Positions 17,532-64,000 of a stretch of 64,000 nucleotides of DNA are shown one piece after another. Both the position numbers and the translations under genes were made by a program. The DNA lies in the sequence record PQ821640. One strand, 5' to 3'. Positions within the stretch are counted from its first letter, which is position 1, and every line of letters starts with the position of its first letter. The notes beneath the pieces are model-generated. The model did not search any database. It had not been told where the DNA came from and worked only from the letters and a program-made list of their open reading frames with translations. The stretch is from Escherichia phage SD2.

Positions 17532-18482
17532 TTAGTCAAGGTTTTTGGTAATACGTGTACAACCATCAGAAGTCAAACCGTCAACTTGAGTTTCCCAAGT
17601 ACCATGAATATTTCGGAACAATGTTGTTACACCTTTTGGTTCATTAATAATGATTGCCATAACAAGTTTAGGATCGATAACAGACATAATCTTTTCCTCA
17701 ATACCCTCTGTAATAACATTATTGCGCACAATATTAATTGCATCTTCTTGTACAGTAAGAACACTTACGTTCTTAAGAGTATATACCTGCTGTGTAGTGT
17801 AAATGATACGAACATAACTTACAGAACGAGTAGGCACAGGTTTACGCGGTCGGCGAAAACGTGGTTTTGGTGAAGATTCAGTTTTACTTTCATCTTTTGA
17901 ATAATACTCCTCAAACAGTTTAGTAAATGTTTTTACATCAACTACAAACCGATCTTTCCGATATGGAGAATTCTTATGTGCACCATTAATACCACTGTTT
18001 TCATCGAAGAAAGTAATGTTTTCTTCATTTGAATACATTAGATAATGATCTGCATTTTTCCAATGTGGTTGTGGACAACGAGGATTACAAACGGAAAGCA
18101 GATAACTAATATCTTCTTCCGTGGCATCAGTATCCACGAAACACGTATTATGCACAGTCAGTTGTACTTTTTCAGCCATATCTTTTTCTTTATCCTCTTT
18201 AGCAAGATATTCAGTACGAATAATCTCCAGAAAATTTTCAGGTGTTACTTCCATAAATGTATATTCAGGATGAAGTTCCATATATTCAAATCCACAACCA
18301 TCTAACTGCTGTAGAAAGTTAGGGTAGAAGAACAAATCATTAACACTGTGAATCAGATTATTGATTTCTGCTTCAGTTGTGTAACCAAAACTCTTGTGAA
18401 TTGCTTCGTTAAGAATATGCAGGATACCCATCTCTTCTGCTGCTTTTTTAACTTCCAGTTTATTAGCGTAAAATGCAATCAT
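17532..18482 (-). CDS. hypothetical protein
   Basis: ORF track 316 aa. Confidence 0.5.
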   Translation of the reverse strand: MIAFYANKLEVKKAAEEMGILHILNEAIHKSFGYTTEAEINNLIHSVNDLFFYPNFLQQLDGCGFEYMELHPEYTFMEVTPENFLEIIRTEYLAKEDKEKDMAEKVQLTVHNTCFVDTDATEEDISYLLSVCNPRCPQPHWKNADHYLMYSNEENITFFDENSGINGAHKNSPYRKDRFVVDVKTFTKLFEEYYSKDESKTESSPKPRFRRPRKPVPTRSVSYVRIIYTTQQVYTLKNVSVLTVQEDAINIVRNNVITEGIEEKIMSVIDPKLVMAIIINEPKGVTTLFRNIHGTWETQVDGLTSDGCTRITKNLD

Positions 18483-18499
18483 TATGTTCTCCTTCTAAA

Positions 18500-18934
18500 T
18501 TAGTTTAAAATTTCTTTTGCAATGGTAGAAGCAAGTTTTCCATCATATTGATTCGGATACTCTGCTTTAAGGTGTTTCATCATATCTGGCATTTTCTTGC
18601 CTGTCAAGGCAAATTCTTCAGCAATAGCGCGAAGGTCATCTTCAGATAGCATTTCTGGTAAATATTTTTCCAGAGTGGTGATATCACGCATAGCTCGCTC
18701 ACATTTGCTAAGGGAAGCATTAACTTTCTTAAGTGAGTCTAGTTCCTCTTTAGCGTGTGCAATACCAATCTTAACAATGTTAATCATAATATCGTCTTCT
18801 GATTTGTTTAGATTTGCCTTTTGAGTACGAGCAAGGTCAAACTCACCAATAATATTAGTTAACAAAGCAAAAGCACCCTTATCGGTTGTACGTGCTAAGA
18901 TACGATCTGCTTTCATTTGTGTCACAATAGACAT
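18500..18934 (-). CDS. GatB/YqeY-domain protein
   Basis: 144 aa; C-terminal YLPEMLSEDDL...DGKLAS pattern resembles the YqeY family. Confidence 0.5.
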   Translation of the reverse strand: MSIVTQMKADRILARTTDKGAFALLTNIIGEFDLARTQKANLNKSEDDIMINIVKIGIAHAKEELDSLKKVNASLSKCERAMRDITTLEKYLPEMLSEDDLRAIAEEFALTGKKMPDMMKHLKAEYPNQYDGKLASTIAKEILN

Positions 18935-31304: not shown

Positions 31305-31330
31305 CCAGCAAATAAAAACCCGCTTCGGCG
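31305..31330 (+). terminator. rho-independent terminator
   Basis: AAACCCGCTTCGGCGGGTTTTCTTG; same core as terminator at 55300-55324. Confidence 0.7.
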
Positions 31331-31373
31331 GGTTTTCTTGCATTAATGCCAGATTTAATAAGAGGAGTAGTAG

Positions 31374-32955: not shown

Positions 32956-33129
32956 TTCATGTACGGAAATTCACCCTCTGAATAATATATTCAGAGTAAA
33001 TATTATTTTGTACTCTGTTAATAAATTATTTAATTTGTTTGTTGGATTATGATATCTGGTTTTTAAAAGGCATACTATCTCTTAACTACTACTTATAACA
33101 GAACAGTAAAATCATTTTTATAAAAAGGA

Positions 33130-33340
33130 CAAAATTATTTAAAGTTTTTACAGATTTTTGGATACAAATTTTGAAAATGAAAAGTTCAAGTTTGGTCAAA
33201 ATTATTTAAAGTTTTTGTATGTATTTCTATCCAGATTTTGAAAATGAAAACTTCAATTTTTTAAAAATTCCCCAGTTTATTTAAAGTTTTTTTACCTTTT
33301 TCCGTAGAAAAATCAAAAATGAAAAGTTCAATTTCGTGTT
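33130..33340 (+). repeat. three tandem ~68-70 bp repeats (ATTTAAAGTTTTT ... ATTTTGAAAATGAAAAGTTCAA)
   Basis: Direct repeat units at about 33130, 33198 and 33266; each contains the inverted repeat TTGAA..TTCAA. Confidence 0.6.
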
Positions 33341-34464: not shown

Positions 34465-34524
34465 TTGACACTGAAAAATAATTTGGTAATATATACTCCA
34501 TAAGGCGGGAAATGGTTTCCCGCC
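34465..34524 (+). promoter_or_regulatory. cassette 2: promoter TTGACA + hairpin GGCGGGAAATGGTTTCCCGCC
   Basis: Consensus -35, TG-extended -10; canonical hairpin core. Confidence 0.65.
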
Positions 34525-34546
34525 AAAACAAAGAAAGGGTAACACA

Positions 34547-34909
34547 ATGAGCAAGCAAATCAATACTATCATGTTAAACCTGGTATCTTTCCGCGATGAC
34601 GTGAAAAACCTTTCGCGTGATGCAGTGGATGCACGGATCGAAAGCTATCGCACACAGATCGCAACGTTACCGCTGAAACGTGATCAACATGCCGCTAATA
34701 TGATGCTTGATGCTATGATTAAAAAGATGATTCAATGTGATCTTACCCTGGCTTATGAATATGCTGGCGATCTCTTTGTAACATATAGCAAGCCCGTTCC
34801 AGGTATGAGCACCACGGAAGAATTGCATGCCTTAAATCTGCGACAAGATGCATGGGATAACATGCGCCGTGTTATGGTATGGGTAGAAAGCGGTAAAATT
34901 TACGAATAA
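34547..34909 (+). CDS. hypothetical protein (cassette 2)
   Basis: ORF track 120 aa; RBS AAGAAAGGG. Confidence 0.55.
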   Translation: MSKQINTIMLNLVSFRDDVKNLSRDAVDARIESYRTQIATLPLKRDQHAANMMLDAMIKKMIQCDLTLAYEYAGDLFVTYSKPVPGMSTTEELHALNLRQDAWDNMRRVMVWVESGKIYE

Positions 34910-36823: not shown

Positions 36824-37063
36824 ATGGCTAAATCTAAAATGTACAACGGTCACAAAAATAAAACTCATTGGAATGTAAGCCTTTGGATTAATAACGATCC
36901 AGGTTTTTATAATATGGCAAAAGAATTTATAGCCGTGAACAACAATAAAGATAACGCCGCGCGTGAAATGATGTCATTACTTAACGAAATGGGCCAAAAT
37001 ACTACGCCAGATGGCTATAAATTCAGTAAAACCAGTATCCGCGCCGCTATGGTAGGAATGTAA
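36824..37063 (+). CDS. hypothetical protein (cassette 6)
   Basis: Start at MAKSK, Met20 of track ORF. Confidence 0.5.
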   Translation: MAKSKMYNGHKNKTHWNVSLWINNDPGFYNMAKEFIAVNNNKDNAAREMMSLLNEMGQNTTPDGYKFSKTSIRAAMVGM

Positions 37064-37072
37064 TAAAAGCAG

Positions 37073-37132
37073 TTGACAACGTTTTTTAATCTGGTATAGT
37101 TTATCACATAGGGCGGGAAATGGTTTCCCGCC
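37073..37132 (+). promoter_or_regulatory. cassette 7: promoter TTGACA + TGgTATAGT extended -10 + hairpin GGGCGGGAAATGGTTTCCCGCC
   Basis: Canonical hairpin. Confidence 0.65.
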
Positions 37133-37154
37133 AAATGAAAGAAAGGTTATCATT

Positions 37155-37382
37155 ATGGCTATCGTTATTGTTCGCGTATCCGGCACGGTTGGAATCTCCC
37201 AGGTAGTAGCAGTTATCACCGAGAAGAAAGGGGATGATCTTCACTCCTCCTTGAATAGCTGGGCGGTCGCTAATTTCGGGCAATGGTCGAGCGTTGAGTA
37301 TATCGAATCCTACCAGGTGCCAACGATTAGCCTAACCGATCTGAATGTTGATCGCTTATTGTGCCTGGATGGATTAAACTAA
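37155..37382 (+). CDS. hypothetical protein (cassette 7)
   Basis: ORF track 75 aa. Confidence 0.55.
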   Translation: MAIVIVRVSGTVGISQVVAVITEKKGDDLHSSLNSWAVANFGQWSSVEYIESYQVPTISLTDLNVDRLLCLDGLN

Positions 37383-39926: not shown

Positions 39927-39989
39927 TTGACAGCACGCCTGATAAGGAGTATATTGTATCTCATAGAGCGGGGAAATGGTTTCCCCGCC
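39927..39989 (+). promoter_or_regulatory. cassette 11: promoter TTGACA + hairpin AGCGGGGAAATGGTTTCCCCGCC
   Basis: Hairpin variant with one extra G-C pair. Confidence 0.6.
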
Positions 39990-40294: not shown

Positions 40295-40355
40295 TTGACA
40301 GTAGGCAAACAACGTAGTAAAGTTTACCACATAGGGCGGGAAATGGTTTCCCGCC
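40295..40355 (+). promoter_or_regulatory. cassette 12: promoter TTGACA + hairpin GGGCGGGAAATGGTTTCCCGCC
   Basis: Canonical hairpin. Confidence 0.65.
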
Positions 40356-40373
40356 AGAATAGAGAGAACTAAA

Positions 40374-40478
40374 ATGATTATTCTTACCATGATGTGCGCG
40401 GCGGTTATTATTCCTTTGATAACGCTTATTGTTTCTGAGATCGATGATCTTCTCTTTGAAAGAAGTTTAAAAAAGTAA
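40374..40478 (+). CDS. tiny membrane peptide (~34 aa, cassette 12)
   Basis: Manual ORF MIILTMMCAAVIIPLITLIVSE...; approximate. Confidence 0.35.
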   Translation: MIILTMMCAAVIIPLITLIVSEIDDLLFERSLKK

Positions 40479-40540
40479 TTGACAACGGCTAATAAGCTGA
40501 TAATATGTATCACATAGGGCGGGGCAATAAGGCAACGCCC
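40479..40540 (+). promoter_or_regulatory. cassette 13: promoter TTGACA-TAATAT + hairpin GGGCGGGGCAATAAGGCAACGCCC
   Basis: Hairpin variant with enlarged loop. Confidence 0.55.
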
Positions 40541-40677: not shown

Positions 40678-41064
40678 ATGAAAACAGAAATCATTATTGA
40701 AATCATCAACGGTTATAAAGAAGCCTTTATTTTTGCTGAATCAGCAAGGGATCATGAAGGTAATTTTATTGATAACTTAGACGATTATGATTTTTCAGAT
40801 CAAGCCCATCAACGGATCATTAATGACGTAGCGGCTTATTGTGATGCCAATGATGCTGCTATCTCTGAGGCAATGAGCGACGGCGCAACAGCAAACCAGA
40901 TCGGGAATGATTTACATTTTACCCGTAACGGTCACGGCGTAGGTTTTTGGGATCGCCCTGAAATATACACTACTAACACCGCCAACCGCCTAACAAATGC
41001 AGCTAGATTAATGCCATCGGTGCATGCTTACATTGGTGAAGATAATTTGATTTATATTGAATAA
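40678..41064 (+). CDS. hypothetical acidic protein
   Basis: ORF track 128 aa. Confidence 0.55.
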   Translation: MKTEIIIEIINGYKEAFIFAESARDHEGNFIDNLDDYDFSDQAHQRIINDVAAYCDANDAAISEAMSDGATANQIGNDLHFTRNGHGVGFWDRPEIYTTNTANRLTNAARLMPSVHAYIGEDNLIYIE

Positions 41065-41070
41065 AAAGTG

Positions 41071-41129
41071 TTGACACCGATCCCCAATATGGTATTATTT
41101 ACCACGTAGGCGGGAAATGGTTTCCCGCC
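41071..41129 (+). promoter_or_regulatory. cassette 14: promoter TTGACA + hairpin GGCGGGAAATGGTTTCCCGCC
   Basis: Canonical hairpin. Confidence 0.65.
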
Positions 41130-41928: not shown

Positions 41929-41987
41929 TTGACACCGGATCGCCCTTATACTAAGATGTATCACGTAGGCGGGAAGTGGTTTCCCGC
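41929..41987 (+). promoter_or_regulatory. cassette 15: promoter TTGACA-TATACT + hairpin GGCGGGAAGTGGTTTCCCGC
   Basis: Hairpin variant. Confidence 0.6.
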
Positions 41988-55299: not shown

Positions 55300-55324
55300 A
55301 AACCCGCTTCGGCGGGTTTTCTTG
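55300..55324 (+). terminator. rho-independent terminator
   Basis: AAACCCGCTTCGGCGGGTTTTCTTG. Confidence 0.7.
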
Positions 55325-55379
55325 TATATACGCTCTTTATCTGTTATAAACACTTTTACCATAAACAATAGGAGGTATT

Positions 55380-55601
55380 ATGTCTGTAGTTGTAGAAGGT
55401 AGTATTGGTTTCTTAGTAGATAACCCTCACCCTTTCGTGGTTAAGGTTCATATTCAAGAAAAGGTAAGCAACAATACGTGGCTGTGCTTGTTAGATAGTA
55501 AGATACACTCTTATACAGAGGTTTATCTTCACACTTGGCAAATTGGTACAATAACAGCAGAGGATGAATTGATAATTGAACTATATGAACGAGATCTATA
55601 G
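55380..55601 (+). CDS. hypothetical protein
   Basis: ORF track 73 aa; RBS AGGAGG. Confidence 0.55.
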   Translation: MSVVVEGSIGFLVDNPHPFVVKVHIQEKVSNNTWLCLLDSKIHSYTEVYLHTWQIGTITAEDELIIELYERDL

Positions 55602-55668: not shown

Positions 55669-55705
55669 AAGACTAAAATAAAGCCCCTAGAATCGCTTCT
55701 AGGGG
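55669..55705 (+). terminator. rho-independent terminator at end of plus-strand block
   Basis: AAAGCCCCTAGAATCGCTTCTAGGGGCTTTTGTTTG. Confidence 0.7.
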
Positions 55706-55776
55706 CTTTTGTTTGTATTAGGTAGGGAAACGTATTACTAAAATAAAAAGTGCGTTAGAATGCGTTACAGGAGGTT

Positions 55777-56034
55777 TTAGGAATGCATAAAATCTTCTTC
55801 AGGGCAGGTTGAGAGATAAGAGATGCACGTTGGGACAACAACAACATTGTCTTTAAGGTTTTCAACCAAGCCTTTTGTAATCCCAGCCACTGCCCCGTTA
55901 ATATCTGCTTGACGGATACCAAAGCCTTGTTGTGCGGATAGATAACAAAATCCCTCACCTTTCTGTTGATTGTTATTGAAGTAATAAACGTAGTGCATCA
56001 TAAAATGGTCTTTAACGATTTGTTCTGTGGTCAT
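55777..56034 (-). CDS. hypothetical protein
   Basis: ORF track 85 aa. Confidence 0.5.
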   Translation of the reverse strand: MTTEQIVKDHFMMHYVYYFNNNQQKGEGFCYLSAQQGFGIRQADINGAVAGITKGLVENLKDNVVVVPTCISYLSTCPEEDFMHS

Positions 56035-56045
56035 AATATTCTCCT

Positions 56046-56072
56046 ATAAGAAAAGGGGCTTTCGCCCCCTTG
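56046..56072 (-). terminator. rho-independent terminator after Sir2-like gene
   Basis: GGGGGCGAAAGCCCC hairpin then TTTTCTTAT on minus strand. Confidence 0.6.
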
Positions 56073-56078
56073 GTTAAG

Positions 56079-56891
56079 TTATTTAGTCAAATGATCTTCT
56101 ATCATTTTTATGAAAGCAGGATTGCTAAAAGCATCTGCGGCCTTTTCTCGATAAACAAAGACTCCTCTATCTTCGTAAAGAAGAGTTTCTTCGTAATTAA
56201 TTCCTGGGTTAACAACAATCATTTTTGTACCCATATTAAGTGCAGGGAATAATTCCCAATTAAAATTGATAACTTGGTTTGAACATCCTACTACTACAAC
56301 CAAATCTTGCATGGTCAAAGTATCAAACAAGTGAGCCATATCTGCATACAAAGGTGCAGCCTCACCAAAAAATACAACATTAGGCTTCACCCAGTTGTAA
56401 TCATCTATGTTTATACTGTTGTAACCAATATCTACCAGTGTTTTGTAATCCCCAGGATGCATACGGTAAACTACTTCAGGAAGATATCCGTGCACGTGGA
56501 TAACAGAATCCCTGTCTACACCTGCTCGCTCTAGTAGATCATCAACGTTTGTTGTCAAGTTTACTACTTGGTTAGGATATTCCTTAAACCACTTTGCTAT
56601 TTGAATATGTGCAGCATTAGGTTGTACATCTTTAAGCTCAACACGTCTTTTGTTATAAAATTCGTGTGTTTTGGCATACAAATCCATACCGTTTTCGTCT
56701 ACACCACCAACCACTGGAAGATCTGGTGATGTTCTCACACGATAACCTGCTTGGAAAGCTCCAATATCGCAGATCTCTTCTAAATCCCATTCTTCCCATA
56801 AGGCACGACCACTATCTGTGTCTGTTCGGAATGTTCGAATCCCACTGTCTGCACTTAAACCAGCTCCACTAACAAAAATTACTCTTCGCAT
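56079..56891 (-). CDS. Sir2-family (sirtuin-like) NAD-dependent protein
   Basis: 270 aa; FVSGAGLSADSGIRTFR (GAGxS..SGIxTFR), TTNVDDLLERAG, HVHG motifs of the Sir2 fold. Confidence 0.75.
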   Translation of the reverse strand: MRRVIFVSGAGLSADSGIRTFRTDTDSGRALWEEWDLEEICDIGAFQAGYRVRTSPDLPVVGGVDENGMDLYAKTHEFYNKRRVELKDVQPNAAHIQIAKWFKEYPNQVVNLTTNVDDLLERAGVDRDSVIHVHGYLPEVVYRMHPGDYKTLVDIGYNSINIDDYNWVKPNVVFFGEAAPLYADMAHLFDTLTMQDLVVVVGCSNQVINFNWELFPALNMGTKMIVVNPGINYEETLLYEDRGVFVYREKAADAFSNPAFIKMIEDHLTK

Positions 56892-57448
56892 TCAATATCC
56901 TCTTCGTAATCATCATACCAAGAAGATGCGTCGTAACGCTCTTCCTCTTCAAAATCCCAATTAATTTCTACTCCAAAATCTAAAAACAATTTAACAATGT
57001 TTTCTGTAGAATAGTATTTATCATAAGCGTTAGCTAGTTCCCAATACTTATCACTCAATTTTTTATAATTAGGATCATTATAATCATGAGCTACTTTATC
57101 ACCATAATCATACATCTCTTGTTCAGCTTTAAGCATAGCTTCTGGTGTAAGAAGATTAGGGAACGGACGATTTCTTTCTTTTAACTTAGAAGCAATCCAG
57201 TTTGCAACATTCGCCACTTCACCATCTCGATTATCACCTAAACAACTTGCATAATCTCCATCTTCGTAAGTGCCTAAATCCCCACTGACTTCATGTACAA
57301 TAGATGAATACGATCCACACGTTTCACAATCTGAAAAAGTGTCTACTGTTGTAATATCAATAGATAAAACTGGTAAAGCCATAGCTTCTTTCACACAAGC
57401 CTCCTCATATAATAACATATCATCAAAACCCATATATCCTCCAGACAA
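56879..57448 (-). CDS. hypothetical acidic protein
   Basis: ORF track 189 aa. Confidence 0.5.
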   Translation of the reverse strand: MSGGYMGFDDMLLYEEACVKEAMALPVLSIDITTVDTFSDCETCGSYSSIVHEVSGDLGTYEDGDYASCLGDNRDGEVANVANWIASKLKERNRPFPNLLTPEAMLKAEQEMYDYGDKVAHDYNDPNYKKLSDKYWELANAYDKYYSTENIVKLFLDFGVEINWDFEEEERYDASSWYDDYEEDIECEE

Positions 57449-57452
57449 ATAA

Positions 57453-57472
57453 AGCCCCTGGTTGGGGGCTTT
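57453..57472 (-). terminator. terminator-like hairpin
   Basis: AGCCCCTGGTTGGGGGCT followed on minus strand by TTTATTTG. Confidence 0.5.
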
Positions 57473-57488
57473 GGTTAAGTTTTACGGA

Positions 57489-58100
57489 TTATACCAGACT
57501 TTTAAGGTAGTTGTCAAGTGCTTCTTGATCACCTTGACAAACATAGCAACGGAAGTCTTGAGCAGAAGGTTCTTTGTCCTCTTCCCAATCCCAATAGACA
57601 GTACCTTTGTAGCGTGAACCTGGGAACTCGAAGTACGCTACATGGGTAATATGGTGTGGGCCACCCCAAAACTCTGTAAAAGTAAATTGAGGATACGCTG
57701 CTTTAACTGTATTTTCAAACCAAGTTTTACGATCTAATGCTTCGTTTATAAAATAAGCATGGCGTTCCATTTCATCCCAATCTTTCCAAACGCATTTTTC
57801 ATCCAAAGAAAAAACAAAATTCTCACTGTTAAAATCGTCTGTATCTGATTCCAAAATATCATAATCATGTGCGCTAGGTATCCACCATCCAGCTTCTAAT
57901 AGTGCTTTCGCAGGTACAAAACCTTTTTCAGCGTATTGATCAAATTCTTTTACTCTACGTACAGTGCAGTATTCATCTTCACCACCAATGTCCAGTATAC
58001 AAGCGCCTTTGCGTCTTGCTGCAAGACCATGTGTATCAAAAACTACAACACTACCTTCACCATCTTCACGATCTACTTGATATGCAACTTTTTGAGTCAT
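57489..58100 (-). CDS. hypothetical protein
   Basis: ORF track 203 aa. Confidence 0.5.
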   Translation of the reverse strand: MTQKVAYQVDREDGEGSVVVFDTHGLAARRKGACILDIGGEDEYCTVRRVKEFDQYAEKGFVPAKALLEAGWWIPSAHDYDILESDTDDFNSENFVFSLDEKCVWKDWDEMERHAYFINEALDRKTWFENTVKAAYPQFTFTEFWGGPHHITHVAYFEFPGSRYKGTVYWDWEEDKEPSAQDFRCYVCQGDQEALDNYLKSLV

Positions 58101-58120
58101 ATTACCCCCAATGTATATGG

Positions 58121-58219
58121 GAAATTAACCAAAAGATAAATTCCCAAAAACACCAACCAAGAAAAGTTAATGGAATTATAAAAGCTATCAAAGCAGTCTT
58201 CCAGCCTTTCCACAATGTT
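58121..58219 (-). CDS. tiny membrane peptide (~32 aa)
   Basis: Manual ORF METLWKGWKTALIAFIIPLTF... with GGAGG RBS; approximate. Confidence 0.3.
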
Positions 58220-58223
58220 TCCA

Positions 58224-59213
58224 TCATTCCTCCATACACTTAAGAATATGTGCAATGACAGGTATAGTCCAACCATTACCTAACATCTTATATGCTTGTG
58301 TGTTACTACTTACTTTAAAGTAATCATCTGGAACACCTTGTAAGCGGCAACACTCTTTAACCGTTAACTTTCTATAATGCACACCTTCACTCAATTTTTC
58401 AAAGGCATCCAGATATCTTCCAGGTGGAATGTAAGCTAATAGTACGTCTTTCGGCACAGTCGTGAGGCAACGAGTTTTTTCACTGTCCTGAACTTCCAAG
58501 CAATGTACCAAACGATCAGTTTTAGATGTACTACGTTTGCCATTTTCATTAATTCTACGCCCATATATTGCCGCTGGATAAAAAACCAGTTGTCTGCGAC
58601 TCTTTTCAAAATACTGTTCTATATTACCACCTTTGGCATAATTTGCATCTATGCAATACGCCTTGTCCCTGTCTACAATACTATCATCTTCAATGATATC
58701 TTGCAACACTTCATTGGTAATATCCCAAGGCTTTATTTCCCAATTGCACCAGTATAAACGTTGTCTATTCTGTGCCGTGAAATCTGCGGAGTTAATGAAC
58801 ACAGGATCAACACCTAAGTAACTTGTGATCACGTTTTCCCACTCCACCTTCATCTTAACGTTTTCAAGCATGAACTTAACATTAGGGTTAAACTTTTTAA
58901 TATGTTCAAGGATTTCAACATATTCAAAGAACAGTTTAGATCGCGGATCTTGAAAGTTCAAACCCTTACCAGAAGAAGAGAAGCCTTGGCACGGACTACC
59001 ACCTAGCAAAAGATCAATTTCTCCCCACGGGATATCCCATTCTCTCCATTTTGTAACATCACCTAATTGAACAATATCTGGAAAATTGGCTTGGCTTTCA
59101 GCTATGGCAAATTTGTCCAACTCTGAAGCATAATACTTATCTACTTCAATACCTGCACTTTTTAGTGCAAGCATTCCTCCTGACATACCATCAAAAAGAC
59201 TTAAAACTTTCAT
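58224..59213 (-). CDS. DNA (cytosine-5)-methyltransferase
   Basis: 329 aa; motif I FDGMSGG, motif IV GGSPCQGFS, motif VI ENV, QNRQR. Confidence 0.85.
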   Translation of the reverse strand: MKVLSLFDGMSGGMLALKSAGIEVDKYYASELDKFAIAESQANFPDIVQLGDVTKWREWDIPWGEIDLLLGGSPCQGFSSSGKGLNFQDPRSKLFFEYVEILEHIKKFNPNVKFMLENVKMKVEWENVITSYLGVDPVFINSADFTAQNRQRLYWCNWEIKPWDITNEVLQDIIEDDSIVDRDKAYCIDANYAKGGNIEQYFEKSRRQLVFYPAAIYGRRINENGKRSTSKTDRLVHCLEVQDSEKTRCLTTVPKDVLLAYIPPGRYLDAFEKLSEGVHYRKLTVKECCRLQGVPDDYFKVSSNTQAYKMLGNGWTIPVIAHILKCMEE

Positions 59214-59626
59214 TATTGCTTCTTCTCCTTAACACTAGCTGGTAATTCTGCCTTAAGGCAGAAGTTTAAACGGTAAGCCTCATTTTCATTTAAAAGTACA
59301 GATTCACACGATAACCAGAACAAGAGATCCTCAATACTAGGACTGTGAAGCCAACAGTGCAGAAGAGAATGTTGTTCTATATCAATGTAATTTAGCAACA
59401 AGCCTTGTAAGGCGTAACTAGTTCCTGTCGTTTTTGCTTTTTCAAGGATGATATTGTGTTTACTAACAACCTTCTTTCTAAGACCAAACCATTTATTAAC
59501 AACAACAGTCTCTTCTTGTAGTTGTTTTCTTATTTTCTCACATTCTTTAACTACAATCTGCATCTTATCCACTGCTGATTGAAGTTGTTCTTTTGTTGGG
59601 TTTACAAAATAGTCACTATAATACAT
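59213..59626 (-). CDS. hypothetical protein
   Basis: ORF track 137 aa. Confidence 0.5.
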   Translation of the reverse strand: MYYSDYFVNPTKEQLQSAVDKMQIVVKECEKIRKQLQEETVVVNKWFGLRKKVVSKHNIILEKAKTTGTSYALQGLLLNYIDIEQHSLLHCWLHSPSIEDLLFWLSCESVLLNENEAYRLNFCLKAELPASVKEKKQ

Positions 59627-59683
59627 ACTAATCTCCTCTTCTGTTTTTGTGTAGTTTATTCGAAAAAACTGGTGTTGTCAACA

Positions 59684-59710
59684 AAAAACCCGCCGAAGCG
59701 GGTTTATATT
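59684..59710 (-). terminator. rho-independent terminator
   Basis: AACCCGCCGAAGCGGGTT with T-run on minus strand. Confidence 0.6.
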
Positions 59711-59966
59711 ATTCTACAGGAATTTCTTCACCAAGAGAAACTTCCAAACGGAATGCTTTACTTTCAATACATTCACTACCTTTTAAGAAATCGAATTGCA
59801 CTATAGACTGACTTAATAGAATAGATAGAATCACATCGCAATCTTCACTAGGAGCCAGATGTTTGTATTCTTCCTTCAAGGTAACATCATAAAAACATAA
59901 ATCCCCTACTCCTAGTTCATCCCATCCTTCCCACGCATCTACAAAGTTAAACTCTAAACCTTTCAT
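59709..59966 (-). CDS. hypothetical protein
   Basis: ORF track 85 aa. Confidence 0.45.
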   Translation of the reverse strand: MKGLEFNFVDAWEGWDELGVGDLCFYDVTLKEEYKHLAPSEDCDVILSILLSQSIVQFDFLKGSECIESKAFRLEVSLGEEIPVE

Positions 59967-60487
59967 ACAACCTCCTCGTAATTGTTATTGTGTTTTACTG
60001 TCTCAACATACAATAAAGATTCCATCTGTAAGACATTACCAGAAATAATAAATCCATAAGCCATTTCAGATGTGTCTATATCATACGCCCCGTCTTCCGG
60101 TTTAGCAAAGTGTAAAACTATTTCATCTGGGTTTTCTTCATCCCATATTTTAGAAATTTTCCGAACCAGAATATTAGCTAAAATAGTTGACATTCGGGAT
60201 AAAGCTGTATCCTCGTATCTTTTAAAACCTAACCAATAGAGGTTAAGAATTTCTACTTCTTCTTGTGTTAAGTTTTTGTCTAAAGTAATCAGATCTGTAG
60301 GATACATCGTTTTTGTTGAATCTACTATTACAAAACCTGGAGTGTTATGAAAAACAATCTTAACTTTATCACGTATGAAGTTTAAACCTTGTGCCTCAAC
60401 TATATATTGTATTGTAGGTACAATATCGTTTGTTACATCAATAAAGCTATCTTTAATGACGCTTATATTATTTCTGGACAAGACCAT
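59963..60487 (-). CDS. hypothetical protein
   Basis: ORF track 174 aa. Confidence 0.5.
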   Translation of the reverse strand: MVLSRNNISVIKDSFIDVTNDIVPTIQYIVEAQGLNFIRDKVKIVFHNTPGFVIVDSTKTMYPTDLITLDKNLTQEEVEILNLYWLGFKRYEDTALSRMSTILANILVRKISKIWDEENPDEIVLHFAKPEDGAYDIDTSEMAYGFIISGNVLQMESLLYVETVKHNNNYEEVV

Positions 60488-61046
60488 TCTCCTCTAAAAT
60501 AGGTTTAATAAATTCGAAGATTTGTTTTTTACTTTTACCTCGAATATTAAAACAAGGAACATTAAACTTTTTAGCCAACATCCAAGCTGTTCTTGTACCA
60601 CCTAAAGGATCTCCATTTTTATCTGTATTTGCACAAGCTAAAAGAAAACAAGATGGTTTTGGATTCTCAAGATCTCTGCCAAGAACTTGGTGGATATTCC
60701 TTTGATGTAATTTTTTAGCACCTTGAGATAATCTGTCCCAAGCAGGATGCAATTCTTTTGCATATTGCAAGGTTAGAGCATAGTTTACACTATCTGGTCT
60801 GTCAAGAACAATAACCTCTCCCTCTATCTCATTACCTTTAAACGAAGGCCAAGGAATGTATATTTCTTTCTTTGTATTGTTTCCACTATCATATACCCCG
60901 CATTCAAATGCGGAATCTGCGCCTTCTGCTTTACCAGATCGTAAAATGAACCATGTAGATAACCATTTGGCAACAGCTACCATAGTGTCCCATTCTTCGT
61001 CTGTAATATCTCTGCTACCAACACCTGTGTAGAATAAATCGCTCAT
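60468..61046 (-). CDS. hypothetical protein (possible DprA/SLOG-like Rossmann domain)
   Basis: Start at MSDLFYTGVGSR with AAGGAG RBS; GVGSR...SGKAEGADSA pattern; tentative. Confidence 0.4.
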   Translation of the reverse strand: MSDLFYTGVGSRDITDEEWDTMVAVAKWLSTWFILRSGKAEGADSAFECGVYDSGNNTKKEIYIPWPSFKGNEIEGEVIVLDRPDSVNYALTLQYAKELHPAWDRLSQGAKKLHQRNIHQVLGRDLENPKPSCFLLACANTDKNGDPLGGTRTAWMLAKKFNVPCFNIRGKSKKQIFEFIKPILEENGLVQK

Positions 61047-61056
61047 GGTTTTCTCC

Positions 61057-61377
61057 TTAACAAGTAATATTGGGAATAATACTGGGAGTAACAATTGGAG
61101 TAATAGGGTACGTAAACCAAGGGCTTCCAATTTCCCAAGGACTATAAGGTGTACGAGGATCAAATGGAGGCGTTACTTGAGGCTTTTTCCAAATCTCCGC
61201 TAGTTGTTTCTTCCATTTATCCCTTGCTGTATCGTTATCTTCATCCAACTGTTCGTCATTATCTTTTATTTCTGATTTTGGAAATAAAAGCTCTTTGACT
61301 AACTCAACGTCTTCCGTTTCAATAGTAGTTTCTTTCGTAATATTCCCTACCGTCTCTTTAATTGTGACTTTATACAT
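61057..61377 (-). CDS. hypothetical protein
   Basis: ORF track 106 aa. Confidence 0.45.
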   Translation of the reverse strand: MYKVTIKETVGNITKETTIETEDVELVKELLFPKSEIKDNDEQLDEDNDTARDKWKKQLAEIWKKPQVTPPFDPRTPYSPWEIGSPWFTYPITPIVTPSIIPNITC

Positions 61378-62123
61378 TAGTCCTCCTCTAAAGTAGAATA
61401 AAATTGTAACGTATTTGAATCATCAAAATATGCAAAGGTTAAATTACCATTGAACACAGATCCAGTATCCATATATACCCTATTACTGCTAATTACAGGT
61501 TTAGGAACATAAGAATGCCCGTGAAATACATAATCTACTCCTGAAACTCTAGGAAGAAGAATCCCTTCAAGGGCGCAATCTATCATATCACGATCCCACA
61601 TTAAAGATTCTGTGAATCGAGATACTTGTTCTTTATTCATATTCGAACAAAATGGCAAAACTTCCGTCACTGGTAGATGTTCCAAAACTGAAGGATATCC
61701 TCCGTGAATAAAGCCTAGTTTCATATTACGATAGTTGACAACAAGTACAACAGGTAAATCTTCTAGCATCAAAGCAAGAGCAGTTGCACCTTCTTCTCCA
61801 CACTCATTTAGAACTGTATGGCCTCCGTTCTGAAACCAACATTCGTAATATCGCCTATCACCTTCTAGCAACCCTTTAATCATCATATCTTCGTGATTTC
61901 CACGAATAGCATAGCGATTTAGCTTTCTGGTGAATTCAACGGTACAACGAAAATTCTGCTTGCCGCGATCTGTAAGATCTCCTAAAGATACAACAACATC
62001 TTGATCTCGAATACCTAAAGTATTAACACCTTTCTGGTATAAATCAAAGCAACCATGTAAATCACCAATAATAAACAGGTCTTGATCATCTTTTACACTA
62101 ATTTCTTGATATACTAGCATCAA
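61377..62123 (-). CDS. Ser/Thr protein phosphatase (calcineurin-like metallophosphoesterase)
   Basis: 248 aa; GDLHG, GDLTDRG, GNHE motifs. Confidence 0.85.
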   Translation of the reverse strand: MMLVYQEISVKDDQDLFIIGDLHGCFDLYQKGVNTLGIRDQDVVVSLGDLTDRGKQNFRCTVEFTRKLNRYAIRGNHEDMMIKGLLEGDRRYYECWFQNGGHTVLNECGEEGATALALMLEDLPVVLVVNYRNMKLGFIHGGYPSVLEHLPVTEVLPFCSNMNKEQVSRFTESLMWDRDMIDCALEGILLPRVSGVDYVFHGHSYVPKPVISSNRVYMDTGSVFNGNLTFAYFDDSNTLQFYSTLEED

Positions 62124-62446
62124 CTCTCCTCAAAATCCATAAGTATAAAGATATTAACTTTACCTTCTATATTATGTTCTACAACAAGATCTGCAAATTC
62201 TTTGTAGGCTTTTTCTTCTATTTGCTCAATGTGAGACGCTACATCTTTGTATATAGCGTCACCATCTACTTTAACAAGGAGGAATAGAGATCTTACCTCA
62301 ATCTCTTTATTTTTACGGGGTAGAAAATCGACGGCTTCTTGTATACGCCAGCCGAGATACCCTGGAGTCCTTTGAATATCCTCCAAATGACTTTCTAAGA
62401 TTTCCCTTCCTTTGTCTATTAAAGCCTGTTCTGTCGTTATTTTCAT
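62120..62446 (-). CDS. hypothetical protein
   Basis: ORF track 108 aa. Confidence 0.5.
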   Translation of the reverse strand: MKITTEQALIDKGREILESHLEDIQRTPGYLGWRIQEAVDFLPRKNKEIEVRSLFLLVKVDGDAIYKDVASHIEQIEEKAYKEFADLVVEHNIEGKVNIFILMDFEES

Positions 62447-62456
62447 CCCCTTCTCC

Positions 62457-63029
62457 TTAATGTGTTAATGAAACTGCGTAACTAAACACAGGTTCAGATA
62501 TTACATCGGCTACAGTAATAAAAACGTCCTCATCTTGCGTTGTTTCTACACGACATACAGTTACACCATTTACCACAAATTCAACGCAATGTGGAATATC
62601 TTCACAAACGAATGTAGTGTAAGTAACACCCAAAGCATCATACAAAGATTTAACAGTATTTGCAAGTGCCGCAGTTTCTTCTTTTTCTGAAACAATGAAT
62701 GCTGTAACAACAAGATTGTTTGCATAGTTTAGACTGTCCTCTATAGCCAATGATTTACAAGGTAGTAATGCAAAATATTTACCTGGTTTAATCAGACCTG
62801 CTTCCCATTGATTCAAAATTGCCTGGGATGGTTTAGTAATATAAAACAGATTTTCACTTGGGTTATCAATATTACTTCTGGCAATACAACGTGAAGGATT
62901 ATTAATATCAAACACATGATCAAAATCTACACAAACTGGTAAACTGAAAGGTGTAAATTTTTTACCTAATAATCCTACTGCTGACAATATGTTTGCTGTG
63001 CTTATCTTCCCGTTAAAAGCTAAACGCAT
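62457..63029 (-). CDS. hypothetical protein
   Basis: ORF track 190 aa. Confidence 0.5.
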   Translation of the reverse strand: MRLAFNGKISTANILSAVGLLGKKFTPFSLPVCVDFDHVFDINNPSRCIARSNIDNPSENLFYITKPSQAILNQWEAGLIKPGKYFALLPCKSLAIEDSLNYANNLVVTAFIVSEKEETAALANTVKSLYDALGVTYTTFVCEDIPHCVEFVVNGVTVCRVETTQDEDVFITVADVISEPVFSYAVSLTH

Positions 63030-63040
63030 ATTTAACTCCT

Positions 63041-63244
63041 TTAACTAGCAACCGTAACTTCCGAACTTTCTTCTTTCGTACTATCTACGATATGCCTGGT
63101 GGCAATATACGAGACTTGCCAGTTACCATCTGGTGTAGTCTCAATAAGTACCCTATCTACTTCGAGAAAATGCAAAAATTCAACCATCGCTCGCTTCGAT
63201 AGGAATTGTTTTTTAACAGTCTCCTCAAAAGATTGAACTGCCAT
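63041..63244 (-). CDS. hypothetical protein
   Basis: ORF track 67 aa. Confidence 0.45.
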   Translation of the reverse strand: MAVQSFEETVKKQFLSKRAMVEFLHFLEVDRVLIETTPDGNWQVSYIATRHIVDSTKEESSEVTVAS

Positions 63245-63253
63245 GTTTCCTCC

Positions 63254-63916
63254 TTATTTAATATCCAATTTTGCACAAAGACGTTGTACCGCTTTGGCAT
63301 CGAACAAACTCCCACGAATAGTTCTCTTTCCTGATTCATTCAGATGCTTTGCAATCGTCATATATGGCGTTTTACAAGCTCTGTATGCAACTAAAGAATC
63401 TTTTAAAGAAAGCGCAAACTCTTTTGAGCGTTTTGCTTCTTCTGTTTTCGTATAATCTGTTCTTTTGTATTTAGGGTTTGCTGCACCAAGAAGCGTTCCC
63501 TTCGCTTTTGCTACCTTAAGGCTCTTCTTAACACGATCAGATATTGCACGAGCCTCTTCTTCTGCCAGAACTGCTAAAATATTTATTATCATATTTTCAG
63601 CGGAGGGCATAGTTGCTATCCGTACATTAATCATCTCTAACAAGGTTGCAACAGAAGCTGTGTTACGTCCCAGACGGTCAACCTTAGCAACAACAAGTGT
63701 AGCACCTGTTTCTTTGCAAAGATTAACAGCTTTTACAAGCTCTCTACGTTGCTTCCAATCGCCTTTACCAGAATAAAACTCTGCAAAGCTACCTACAATA
63801 GTATAATTTTCTTGTGAATCCAGGAAGCGTTGGATATCTGCTTCCTGTGATTCTATACCATACTGGTTGCCTTGTTGTTTCTTCTTAGAAAGTCGATGAT
63901 ACAGTACAAACTTCAT
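63254..63916 (-). CDS. serine recombinase (resolvase/invertase family)
   Basis: 220 aa; N-terminal YHRLSKKKQ (catalytic Ser context), VVAKVDRLGRN, C-terminal HTH-like region. Confidence 0.75.
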   Translation of the reverse strand: MKFVLYHRLSKKKQQGNQYGIESQEADIQRFLDSQENYTIVGSFAEFYSGKGDWKQRRELVKAVNLCKETGATLVVAKVDRLGRNTASVATLLEMINVRIATMPSAENMIINILAVLAEEEARAISDRVKKSLKVAKAKGTLLGAANPKYKRTDYTKTEEAKRSKEFALSLKDSLVAYRACKTPYMTIAKHLNESGKRTIRGSLFDAKAVQRLCAKLDIK

Positions 63917-64000
63917 AACACCCTCCTGTTCTGTTGCAGGAAGTATGCACTACCTTAATGTTAAAGTCAACAGTTAAGTAGTGGTAATATCATCCTCTTG

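Follow-up and report, generated by a model that had tools for sequence, protein, structure and literature searches.

The minus-strand genes at positions 55777-63916 of the analysed window (the whole stretch of 64,000 nucleotides from Escherichia phage SD2, record PQ821640) very probably belong to the promoter-distal auxiliary-gene arm of a virulent phi92-like myovirus (Justusliebigvirus, Stephanstirmvirinae) and are divided into at least three units, as opposed to forming one system. The four named genes, encoding a Sir2-family protein, a C5 cytosine methyltransferase, a lambda-type phosphatase and a serine recombinase, most likely act separately. This view follows from their fates in relatives: phages ESCO13 and FKP3 have another gene in place of the methyltransferase, which Bas62 has lost by deletion; the recombinase is relocated; the high DNA identity to ESCO13 (91%) is confined to the Sir2 ORF; and the FKP3 phosphatase is split. 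The initial annotation had treated the genes as a coherent block, which does not agree with their distribution over different predicted transcription units or with their independent variation between relatives. Its four domain calls were borne out by Pfam, PHROGs and PDB sequence searches and by intact catalytic motifs, and the gene coordinates agree with the ORF boundaries. All of the biochemical roles given below for the block proteins are ones that we infer.

Relatives and layout of the arm

The window is ~98.8% identical to Escherichia phage alia. The block DNA is 97.7-98.8% identical to that of ECGD1, PHB05, phi92 and Bas60 (98.8% for alia), with an identical gene order. These members of the genus Justusliebigvirus (alia, phi92, PaulScherrer/Bas60, ECGD1 and PHB05) differ from the window, over the block, by scattered point differences only and, judged by sequence, the block in the window and in the alia/phi92/Bas60 relatives is one and the same element. 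Its gene content is already known. More than 50 deposited genomes carry annotations for the four named genes, which are accessory genes of phi92-like E. coli phages. The labels used in Justusliebigvirus records are Sir2/sirtuin, cytosine methyltransferase, Ser/Thr (NinI-like) phosphatase, and DNA invertase or site-specific recombinase; the phi92 counterparts of Sir2, the methyltransferase and the recombinase are gp038, gp043 and gp053, respectively. The sister genus Phapecoctavirus (ESCO13, phAPEC8) has a matching arm, with the Sir2, 203-aa, DprA-like, phosphatase, “HisRS-like”, N6-methyltransferase, HslV-like, PhoH and Rml genes of ESCO13 in synteny.

The block comprises 15 tightly packed ORFs, all on the minus strand, and forms the far, promoter-distal 8 kb of a long arm of auxiliary genes on that strand. 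The last plus-strand gene stops at 55601 and the last minus-strand gene at 55777, and a bidirectional terminator hairpin (55680..55709; 13-bp stem, T-runs on both strands) is located where the two arms converge. The block appears to be split into at least three units bounded by promoters and terminators, each with a predicted host-type promoter. The first would run from the recombinase through the phosphatase and the DprA-like gene, following a sigma-70-like promoter immediately before the recombinase gene (63942..63970, minus strand; TTGACT-17-CATACT), the -10 element of which is conserved in Klebsiella phage FKP3. The predicted border with the second unit (59653..59705) consists of a terminator hairpin (59705-59686, minus strand) directly before a promoter-like site (59681-59653, minus strand; TTGACA-17-TAAACT). 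The sequence of this hairpin recurs at 31316-31343 and 55300-55327. The second unit would contain a 137-aa ORF, the methyltransferase and a 203-aa ORF, and the third an acidic 184-aa ORF and Sir2. Upstream of this last pair there is a perfect sigma-70-type promoter (57517-57488, minus strand; 12/12, with TG) and, after it, a GC-rich hairpin (57472-57451, minus strand). Promoters and terminators were called by matching to a consensus, and as the region holds 31 promoter matches versus 28.8 in shuffled sequence, which is no higher, the unit boundaries are plausible but unproven.

Among the other ORFs, the two of 85 aa are located at 55777..56034 (phrog_15991; 47% identical to its ESCO13 counterpart) and 59709-59966 (phrog_4991), with ORFs of 174 aa at 59963-60487 (phrog_8569) and 106 aa at 61057..61377 (phrog_15301). 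Three further ORFs encode 108 aa (62120-62446), 190 aa (62457-63029; labelled “histidyl-tRNA-synthetase-like” by PHROGs) and 67 aa (63041-63244). A weak paralogue of the 190-aa protein resides near 18.2-18.8 kb of the window (23% identity, E 0.004). The DprA-like protein (192 aa; 60468..61046; phrog_768, 2e-60), of which the 231-aa ORF at 60468-61163 is an over-extension, is 66% identical in ESCO13 and gave no Pfam, PDB or NCBIfam match; we infer a SLOG-type Rossmannoid fold.

The sirtuin and the lambda-type phosphatase

The Sir2-family protein (270 aa; 56079..56891, minus strand) matches SIR2 PF02146 (E=2.8e-22) and phrog_2162 (3e-104), and its gene is followed by a terminator-like hairpin (56053-56071, minus strand). 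The start of the gene overlaps by 13 nt the end of the ORF for the very acidic 184-aa protein (56879..57433, minus strand; 189 aa from a TTG at 57448; phrog_9509; pI 4.05), which is found in 130 phage records, all Stephanstirmvirinae or close relatives. The Sir2 motifs are intact (GAGLS9-13, TTNVD113-117, H134-G135, FGE175). The GAGxS, catalytic His, FGE and YxxR elements of E. coli CobB (PDB 1s5p, 6e-18) align with it, but the window protein has no Cys4 zinc module, with two Cys only (C41, C203) and no CxxC, and carries TTNVD instead of TQNID. It scores under every CobB equivalog cutoff, and defence-type Sir2 models gave no match. The RNA-ligase-operon sirtuin of rV5-like phages (Vequintavirus) is 55% identical to it in a MAFFT alignment and 48% by tblastn, and lacks a 22-residue insertion of the window protein (residues 52-73). 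The homologue of the rV5-like phage EdH4 has the signatures TTNVD, HVHGYLPE and WVKPNVVFFGE in common with it, and likewise no zinc cysteines. By these signatures, the window Sir2 is a member of a clade of phage sirtuins that lack the zinc module, and it would function as a NAD-dependent enzyme of this clade. The ESCO13 Sir2 is anomalously similar (95% protein, 91% DNA), whereas its flanks are about 69% identical in DNA. Iyer et al. 2022 (PMC9503650) reported that most phage sirtuins form a distinct clade, typified by rV5, the genes of which stand beside those for a T4-like RNA ligase and a kinase and sometimes that for a calcineurin-like phosphoesterase; the RNA-repair role of the clade is a computational prediction.

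The lambda-phosphatase (NinI)-type metallophosphoesterase (247 aa; 61377..62120, minus strand) matches Metallophos PF00149 (E=4.4e-14, at 61377-62123) and phrog_246 (6e-77); its start is probably the ATG at 62120, not the TTG at 62123. All five metallophosphatase motifs are present (GDLHG20, GDLTDRG48, GNHE75, H140, GH202). The protein aligns over its full length with the lambda Ser/Thr phosphatase (NinI, PDB 1g5b; 3.3e-30 over residues 4-231), than which it is ~27 residues longer, and by this alignment it is a close relative of that enzyme. It is under the PrpA/PrpB equivalog cutoffs and shows weaker matches to ApaH/PrpE and bacterial Pnkp. In FKP3, the phosphatase is broken into two fragments. 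Keppetipola and Shuman are said to have described, in 2007, a 2′,3′-cyclic phosphodiesterase activity in lambda phosphatase. The window enzyme is predicted to be a Mn-dependent phosphoesterase of this type, with phosphoprotein or RNA 2′,3′-cyclic/3′-phosphate ends as candidate substrates.

It is possible, if doubtful, that Sir2, perhaps with the phosphoesterase and the DprA-like protein, represents an RNA-repair or NAD/ADP-ribose counter-defence toolkit and not a means of altering host protein signalling. Once tRNA had been cut by host anticodon nucleases, Sir2 would move ADP-ribose onto the RNA 2′-phosphate (cf. KptA/Tpt1) and the phosphoesterase would heal 2′,3′-cyclic or 3′-phosphate ends; the break would then be sealed by an RNA ligase and a polynucleotide kinase whose genes lie farther along this arm. 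The clade signatures shared with EdH4 are consistent with such a role, and the EdH4 neighbourhood was confirmed here: RNA ligase, a small ORF and Sir2 occur in one run, with an AAA_33 kinase and a phosphoesterase divergent from it. Bas60 encodes a polynucleotide kinase, RNA ligase and phosphoesterase (bas60_0242-0244), as well as PRPP synthetase and NadV. The phosphatase weakly matches, in addition to Pnkp, a PHROG of phosphoesterase fused to RNA ligase, and the cyclic phosphodiesterase activity attributed to lambda phosphatase points in the same direction. However, Sir2 is located ~31 kb from the ligase/kinase cluster of the arm, and the cluster has its own phosphoesterase, so that the support from gene neighbourhood is lost in SD2. 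In addition, Sir2 keeps a CobB/SIRT5-type YxxR (Y79, R82) aligned with the CobB acyl-lysine pocket, which makes it compatible with a protein deacylase. The enzyme may be a deacylase, or it may take off the RNA 2′-phosphate in tRNA repair, as the published prediction has it. For the Sir2 clade, RNA repair is at least as good a fit as the manipulation of host signalling or immunity proposed initially.

The serine recombinase

The compact serine recombinase (220 aa, pI 9.8; 63254..63916, minus strand; Resolvase PF00239 E=8.4e-22) is laid out as a catalytic domain, a long helix E and a four-helix C-terminal DNA-binding domain (AF2 pLDDT 88). The catalytic motif set is present (Y6, R8, S10, DRLGR80-84), and Y6, R8, S10, Q24, D80, R81, R84, E121 and R128 show little or no variation in 31 homologues with identities as low as 30%. 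Sin, gamma-delta/Tn3, Hin/Gin, Bxb1 and PhiC31 have this catalytic-domain fold and the full set of catalytic residues in common with it. The best Foldseek matches are Bxb1 integrase (6.5e-7), then Sin and gamma-delta resolvase, while the PDB sequence search returned Sin/Tn3/gamma-delta resolvases (1e-5). The protein differs from these in having no zinc-ribbon, coiled-coil domain or Pfam-recognisable Hin-type HTH. Its C-terminal helices carry the pattern IA..LN..G..T..G..W....V.R, which is taken here to correspond to the beginning of the recombinase domain in large serine integrases. The enzyme would be catalytically competent and expressed from its own promoter.

A recombinase had been considered unusual in a virulent-looking phage, yet it is retained in practically the entire subfamily: about 130 of 161 matches are Stephanstirmvirinae, approximately the count for a subfamily-specific neighbour gene. 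The gene is part of neither a transposon nor a prophage, and its phage is strictly lytic. The suggestion that it drives DNA inversion is weakened, as the search for crossover-type inverted repeats and adjacent res/crossover sites found none, and no inversion was seen among about 55 Justusliebigvirus genomes, in which the 24 kb surrounding the gene are collinear. The enzyme appears to cause no inversion or rearrangement of neighbouring phage DNA in any sequenced relative. As for the resolution of multimers, to our knowledge phages replicating as linear concatemers have no obvious need of it.

These results bear on the proposal of a coordinated anti-defence or host-takeover module, in which the methyltransferase shields DNA, the phosphatase and Sir2 rewire host signalling and immunity, and the recombinase inverts or resolves DNA. 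The clustering of the genes in an arm that has host-type promoters does point to early or middle expression. The proposal is nevertheless improbable, given the gene-by-gene variation between relatives, the Sir2 protein unlike defence-type models, the lack of inverted repeats and inversion polymorphism, and the general point on linear concatemers made above.

It is less probable still that the recombinase, with its own promoter and one ORF, is a selfish mobile cassette moving within and between phage genomes and serving no phage function. The gene occupies different loci on oppositely transcribed arms in Justusliebigvirus and Phapecoctavirus; the ESCO13 copy (56% identity) is on the opposite arm and absent from the syntenic slot. 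Homology between the loci is confined to the ORF and stops at its ends, and each copy has a promoter-like site, that of ESCO13 being an additional TTGACA-18-TAAAAT just upstream. Against mobility stand its presence in essentially every subfamily record, the collinearity of the Justusliebigvirus genomes and the conservation of catalytic residues; neither terminal repeats nor shared flanking sequence were found at the recombinase loci. One old relocation with purifying selection fits better than ongoing mobility.

The methyltransferase cassette

The orphan C5 cytosine DNA methyltransferase (329 aa; 58224..59213, minus strand; DNA_methylase PF00145 E=1.6e-43) has intact motifs (PC74-75(Q), ENV117, QNRQR148, GN312) and reaches 140.8 bits against TIGR00675 (cutoff 100.65). 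Motifs I, IV, VI, VIII and X are shared with M.HhaI, M.HaeIII and the DNMT3 catalytic domain, which match over the catalytic core in the PDB sequence search (E about 1e-22 to 5e-24). Alignment with these enzymes fails in the target-recognition region, and their specificity is therefore not transferable. Of the earlier description as a Dcm-like cytosine methyltransferase, the C5 assignment stands, but membership of the E. coli Dcm (CCWGG) subfamily was ruled out by a score of 30 only, against 710. The description as lacking a cognate restriction enzyme was upheld: Pfam, PHROGs and defence-family searches found no restriction-enzyme family among the block ORFs, and none is annotated in alia or Bas60 in the 8 kb past the window end.

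The gene is flanked by the 137-aa ORF (59213..59626, minus strand; phrog_16551), the first of its unit, the stop of which overlaps the methyltransferase start, and by the acidic 203-aa ORF (57489..58100, minus strand). The former has a 24%-identical homologue at the same position in ESCO13. The latter was considered as a restriction enzyme or nuclease and rejected, as its C-terminal half is modelled as an NTF2/cystatin-like fold.

An anti-restriction function agrees with the orphan status, since orphan phage methyltransferases are a recognised device of this type (cited in the BME3 paper). The window also strongly avoids GGCC, GGWCC and CCSGG, with CCWGG and GCGC not avoided, which indicates that restriction pressure shapes the phage genome. 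Both observations would suit the takeover proposal. In the BASEL data, however, the methyltransferase carriers Bas60 and Bas61, described as exceptionally sensitive to restriction systems, give no plaques on EcoRI, EcoRV and EcoP1 hosts, and Bas62, which has no methyltransferase, plates almost like them on six restriction systems. Any protection is therefore narrow and putative. Methylation of one short cytosine motif in the phage DNA is the probable activity of the enzyme, and narrow, host-dependent protection its probable effect.

The methyltransferase slot of ESCO13 and FKP3 holds a short, 25%-identical C5-methyltransferase-like gene (227 aa in ESCO13), and a natural deletion in Bas62 takes the 137-aa ORF, the methyltransferase and the 203-aa ORF together. 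Although this joint loss would be expected if loss of the methyltransferase alone were lethal, and the three genes share one predicted unit, a complete phage-borne restriction-modification pair is scarcely credible, for no nuclease or defence family was matched by either neighbour, the 203-aa fold is confidently modelled, the 137-aa ORF is by our assessment below the usual size of a restriction enzyme, and both are kept in ESCO13 and FKP3 beside a very different methyltransferase.

By these comparisons, the cassette is replaceable and dispensable; it would have been exchanged between genera, with its loss harmless on E. coli K-12. For the arm of separately acting genes as a whole, co-location across the subfamily could reflect common timing or function. 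Published work ties the Sir2, phosphatase and DprA-like families to NAD/ADP-ribose or RNA-repair networks, so that some functional coupling between these genes is possible.

Gene content and layout of the minus-strand block

The block at 55777-63916 consists of 15 close-packed ORFs on the minus strand, and the coordinates of the initial annotation coincide with the ORF ends. All four domain names proposed there were confirmed by Pfam, with PHROGs concordant: SIR2 (2.8e-22; gene at 56079-56891), DNA_methylase (1.6e-43; 58224-59213), Metallophos (4.4e-14; 61377-62120) and Resolvase (8.4e-22; 63254-63916). Searches of PDB sequences returned E. coli CobB (6e-18), DNMT3, M.HhaI and M.HaeIII (about 1e-22 to 5e-24), lambda phosphatase 1g5b (3e-30) and the Sin, Tn3 and gamma-delta resolvases (about 1e-5), respectively. 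Each of the four proteins has its catalytic motifs intact. Only two of the other eleven ORFs carry a label, a DprA-like protein (60468-61046) and a protein loosely labelled by PHROGs as “histidyl-tRNA synthetase” (62457-63029), and a PDB sequence search gave no match for either. The latter has a paralogue at about 18188-18760 (both 190 aa; 23% identity, E 0.004), which bears the same PHROG label and adjoins a gene labelled “tRNA amidotransferase”. Pfam and the PDB sequences contain no match to either paralogue, which makes the label look doubtful.

Escherichia phage alia matches the region 55700-64000 from end to end at 98.8% identity; for ECGD1, PHB05, phi92, Bas60 (PaulScherrer) and about 50 further records of Justusliebigvirus (subfamily Stephanstirmvirinae) the identity is 97.7-98.8%. 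These phages are virulent myoviruses, and the BASEL study handles them together with the rV5-like Vequintavirinae. The records of the relatives already carry the annotations sirtuin/Sir2, (Dcm-like) C5 cytosine methyltransferase, NinI-like Ser/Thr phosphatase, and DNA invertase or site-specific recombinase. The gene content of the block is public knowledge and adds nothing to the annotation of phi92-like phages. The genes had been correctly observed from the sequence; the interpretation placed on them was generic and has been borne out only in part. Four GenBank records labelled “Campylobacter phage” with the host Campylobacter jejuni (MG065639, MG065645, MG065656 and MG065689) are 98% identical across the whole block, and are probably mislabelled or coliphage contaminants.

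The block lies at the distal end of a minus-strand arm of much greater length, and a bidirectional terminator (55680-55709) marks where this arm and the plus-strand arm converge. Past the window end, in alia and Bas60, the arm carries genes for an N6-adenine methyltransferase, an HslV-like peptidase, PhoH, an endolysin, dTDP-rhamnose synthesis and ribonucleotide reductase. At a further distance of some 25-35 kb come a cluster for polynucleotide kinase, RNA ligase and phosphoesterase and, on the other strand, genes of NAD salvage. Within the block, consensus scans predict a promoter ahead of the recombinase gene (63970-63942), a terminator followed directly by a promoter (59705-59653), a perfect 12/12 promoter with a hairpin preceding the gene pair of a 184-aa protein and Sir2 (57517-57451), and a terminator after the Sir2 gene (56071-56053). 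Three transcription units are therefore plausible, the recombinase and phosphatase sharing one, the methyltransferase lying in a second and Sir2 in a third. Terminator-like sites are commoner than in shuffled sequences (11 versus 4.2), whereas promoter-like sites are not (31 versus 28.8), and the unit boundaries are thus plausible rather than proven.

Several repeated elements were recorded in the window. The terminator hairpin sequence AAACCCGCTTCGGCGGGTTT is used three times, at 31316-31343, at 55300-55327 and, inverted, at 59685-59710. The plus-strand arm contains a cassette made up of a TTGACA-type promoter, a conserved GC-rich hairpin GGGCGGGAAATGGTTTCCCGCC and a ribosome-binding site, with copies at 34479-34549, 37056-37157, 39952-39985, 40310-40380, 40462-40523, 41054-41128 and 41938-41987. 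The promoter and hairpin at 57517-57451 resemble this cassette, and the hairpins of both may be 5′-UTR elements of early transcripts. At 33114-33334, an AT-rich repeat of 67-79 nt occurs in three adjacent copies within a gene-poor stretch, which could be a regulatory or replication-origin region.

The serine recombinase and its possible target

The recombinase (63254-63916) scores 78 bits against PF00239, for which the threshold is 23. Residues Y6, R8, S10, Q24, D80, R81, R84, E121 and R128 are kept in an alignment of 31 homologues reaching down to 30% identity. In the AlphaFold model (pLDDT 88) the catalytic domain is followed by a long helix E (108-138) and by four helices that make up the C-terminal domain; the structures most like it are those of Bxb1 integrase, Sin and gamma-delta resolvase. 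The C-terminal part has a sequence pattern that we take to resemble the start of the recombinase domain in large serine integrases; a zinc-ribbon domain is lacking. An integrase of that large type would be longer than 400 aa, with recombinase and zinc-ribbon domains, a coiled coil, an attP site and a lysogenic lifestyle, whereas this protein has 220 aa, the four-helix C-terminal domain and a place in a virulent phage group.

The initial annotation had regarded such a gene as unusual in a virulent-looking phage. Within its own lineage it is not unusual, since essentially every Stephanstirmvirinae record contains a member of the family. Remoter copies occur in marine phages of Vibrio, Shewanella and Cellulophaga, and one Vibrio phage has the gene downstream of rIIA/rIIB. 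The Klebsiella phage FKP3 has its recombinase at the same position as the window. In ESCO13, of the sister genus Phapecoctavirus, the syntenic slot is without a recombinase, and a 56%-identical copy lies in the other arm, about 7 kb short of the point where the arms converge. The Justusliebigvirus and Phapecoctavirus copies examined each have their own predicted host-type promoter.

Two roles had been put forward for the recombinase, the resolution of replication multimers and DNA inversion. For the first, the comparison is with the resolvases of transposons and plasmids (Tn3, gamma-delta, Sin), to which the protein is related in sequence and fold; such enzymes would have a res site of several dimer-binding subsites beside the gene, in a replicon prone to cointegrates or dimers. 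Here a transposon context is lacking and the upstream gap is only 57 bp and bears a promoter, though a remote site may exist. In the alignment with FKP3 no conserved operator-like dyad was seen upstream, the conserved feature being the -10 promoter element only. For the second, the similarity to DNA invertases (Hin/Gin/Cin/Pin) amounts to 33.5 bits against the NCBIfam Mpi invertase model, compared with a cutoff of 272. An invertase would be expected to have inverted crossover sites on both sides of an invertible segment beside its gene, and both orientations would occur in natural populations. Inverted and direct repeats were sought across the whole window and in a 6.5-kb stretch containing the recombinase, of which 3.3 kb lie past the window end as represented by alia; only chance-like short pairs of low identity and terminator hairpins appeared. 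The search for inverted repeats near the gene and beyond the window end, suggested with the inversion proposal, thus gave no crossover-type repeats above chance. A 24.3-kb query around the recombinase matched about 55 genomes, each at a single collinear location and with no rearrangement, which counts against inversion. The Justusliebigvirus and Phapecoctavirus recombinase loci share no flanks; homology stops at the ORF, so that element ends are absent. In the absence of crossover repeats, inversion, common flanks and an upstream dyad, the invertase and resolvase readings are both unsupported.

After these readings drop out, the recombinase remains as a predicted active enzyme, to judge from its conserved residues and modelled fold. 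It might be an active site-specific enzyme of strictly lytic phages whose target is not in their own collinear genome, a proposal that we consider improbable. Candidate targets would be a site in the host chromosome, a prophage or satellite resident in the host, or a competitor infecting the same cell. Searches of the literature on serine recombinases in virulent phages found no relevant report.

The methyltransferase and variation among relatives

Comparison with relatives says that the block genes would not behave as one system. The arm is syntenic in ESCO13 with uneven identities (phosphatase 76%, DprA-like protein 66%, 203-aa ORF 68%, 184-aa ORF 37%), and a short C5-MTase-like protein of 227 aa, 25% identical, stands in place of the C5-methyltransferase. 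FKP3 has a methyltransferase of ~229 aa with no detectable similarity to that of the window. Its phosphatase homologue is annotated as two fragments (PP895363.1, 10461-11197), representing either a frameshift pseudogene or a sequencing error. Bas62 (JohannJBalmer, MZ501084.1) has a 2.1-kb deletion corresponding to about 57796-59915 of the window, and with it the C5-methyltransferase and a 137-aa ORF are gone, as is the greater part of the 203-aa and 85-aa ORFs. At the deletion junction, about 25 bp are shared by the two alignment pieces.

The methyltransferase (58224-59213) exceeds the curated thresholds of PF00145 (149.8 bits versus 22) and TIGR00675 (140.8 versus 100.65). It has motifs I (FDGMSGG, 7-13), IV (GSPCQ with C75), VI (ENV117), VIII (QNRQR148) and X (GNGW312), and by every sequence criterion it is a predicted C5 DNA methyltransferase. 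The designation Dcm-like holds at the superfamily level only; the protein falls outside the E. coli Dcm (CCWGG) subfamily, with 30 bits against a cutoff of 710 for NF007772. The phage proteins closest to it share about 50% identity and come from ICP1, jumbo coliphages, and Vibrio and Bacteroides phages. The view that it is an orphan enzyme stands. No block ORF matches a nuclease family in Pfam, PHROGs, PADLOC or NCBIfam, the 137-aa neighbour (59213-59626) being assessed by sequence only, and the annotations of alia and Bas60 show no restriction endonuclease, which would have made the enzyme part of a complete restriction-modification system, in the 8 kb to each side. The 203-aa neighbour (57489-58100) was considered as a restriction enzyme and rejected, as its confident model (pLDDT 84) has an NTF2/cystatin-like C-terminal half.

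The orphan enzyme had been taken to point to protection against restriction. According to the BASEL paper, phages of this group are exceptionally susceptible to restriction-modification systems. In its raw data, no plaques were obtained on EcoRI, EcoRV and EcoP1 hosts for Bas60 and Bas61, which have the methyltransferase, or for Bas62, in which it is deleted. Efficiencies of plating (EOPs) on EcoKI are alike in Bas60/61 and Bas62 (0.1-0.7), and those on EcoCFT_II are at most a few-fold apart (0.11-0.56 versus 0.06-0.11). Because Bas62 plates much like Bas60/61, the methyltransferase would be dispensable on K-12 and any protection narrow.

The alignment with PDB homologues is confined to the catalytic core and gave no target specificity, and literature searches found no methylome for Justusliebigvirus-type phages. 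In the whole window, GGCC (observed/expected 0.25; 16 versus 64.5), GGWCC (0.06; 1 versus 16) and CCSGG (0.2; 2 versus 10) are strongly avoided, as is CCGG (25 observed versus 50 expected), whereas CCWGG (1.17), GCGC (1.11) and GATC are not. The avoidance of GGCC, GGWCC and CCSGG shows restriction pressure on the genome without assigning the target of the methyltransferase. Between Sir2 and the methyltransferase lie two strongly acidic proteins, of 184 aa (56879-57433, pI 4.05) and 203 aa (pI 4.58), and to call them inhibitors or DNA mimics would be speculation.

The phosphatase and the Sir2-like protein

The initial annotation had linked these two proteins to manipulation of host signalling or immunity. 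The predicted phosphatase (61377-62120) is a clear lambda-phosphatase homologue, with a full-length alignment to 1g5b (3.3e-30) and motifs at residues 20 (GDxHG), 48 (GDxxDRG), 75 (GNH(E/D)), 140 (conserved His) and 202 (GH). It scores below the PrpA/PrpB equivalog cutoffs of NCBIfam, and with its weaker matches to ApaH, PrpE and Pnkp, it may act on phospho-Ser/Thr proteins, on nucleotides or on RNA ends.

The Sir2-like protein (56079-56891) scores 80 bits against PF02146 (threshold 24) and has the signatures GAGLS9, N115/D117, H134 and FGE175. It aligns best with CobB and keeps the class III YxxR motif (Y79, R82), which is linked to recognition of acidic acyl-lysine in CobB and SIRT5. Unlike canonical sirtuin deacylases, it has no Cys4 zinc module, with only C41 and C203 and no CxxC, and it reads TTNVD where the canonical form is TQNID. 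Its best NCBIfam score, against CobB equivalogs, is 104.8 bits for a cutoff of 243, and all cutoffs are missed. A defence-type Sir2 NADase (ThsA, DSR) was rejected, as PADLOC gives only a marginal match (E 0.0066) to an unrelated candidate model and the 270-aa protein consists of one domain. The overlapping 184-aa gene was likewise rejected as a conserved Sir2 partner, being confined to Stephanstirmvirinae and missing in Sir2-bearing T5-like and rV5-like phages.

About 970 phage records contain a homologue, T5-like and rV5-like phages among them. Iyer et al. 2022 (PMC9503650) place most phage sirtuins in a distinct clade with a predicted role in RNA repair, the removal of RNA 2′-phosphates. 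The homologue of the rV5-like phage EdH4 (55% identity by MAFFT, 48% by tblastn) has the same signatures and lies within an RNA ligase operon, beside a kinase and a phosphoesterase. In the phage of the window the ligase/kinase cluster is about 31 kb from Sir2, which weakens the argument from neighbourhood. An RNA 2′-phosphotransferase activity of this zinc-less Sir2 is a possibility, more modest than that of a recombinase acting on an outside target. Bas60 (MZ501100.1) carries the polynucleotide kinase/RNA ligase/phosphoesterase cluster and a PRPP synthetase/nicotinamide phosphoribosyltransferase pair for NAD salvage (138358-140248 and 143141-145839), and these bear on the role of an NAD-using Sir2.

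Within 56030-56893, the Sir2 ORF alone is 91% identical to ESCO13 in DNA (95% in protein), compared with about 69% in the adjacent alignable flanks and 64-69% for the Sir2 allele of other Phapecoctavirus-like phages. This suggests that the gene was recently exchanged between genera as a single gene.

Several of these features may merit follow-up. Bas62 is a natural methyltransferase knockout comparable with Bas60 and Bas61, and all three are already in strain collections. Further value lies in the relocation of the recombinase between genera and in the recent exchange of the Sir2 gene, and the phage sirtuin clade carries a specific RNA-repair prediction. Answers here would fill gaps in what is understood of large virulent coliphages facing host defences, leaving the current understanding in place. 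A further pointer is the serine recombinase, which a strictly lytic lineage has conserved with its catalytic residues intact and for which, if true, a role on an outside target would be a function of serine recombinases so far undescribed.
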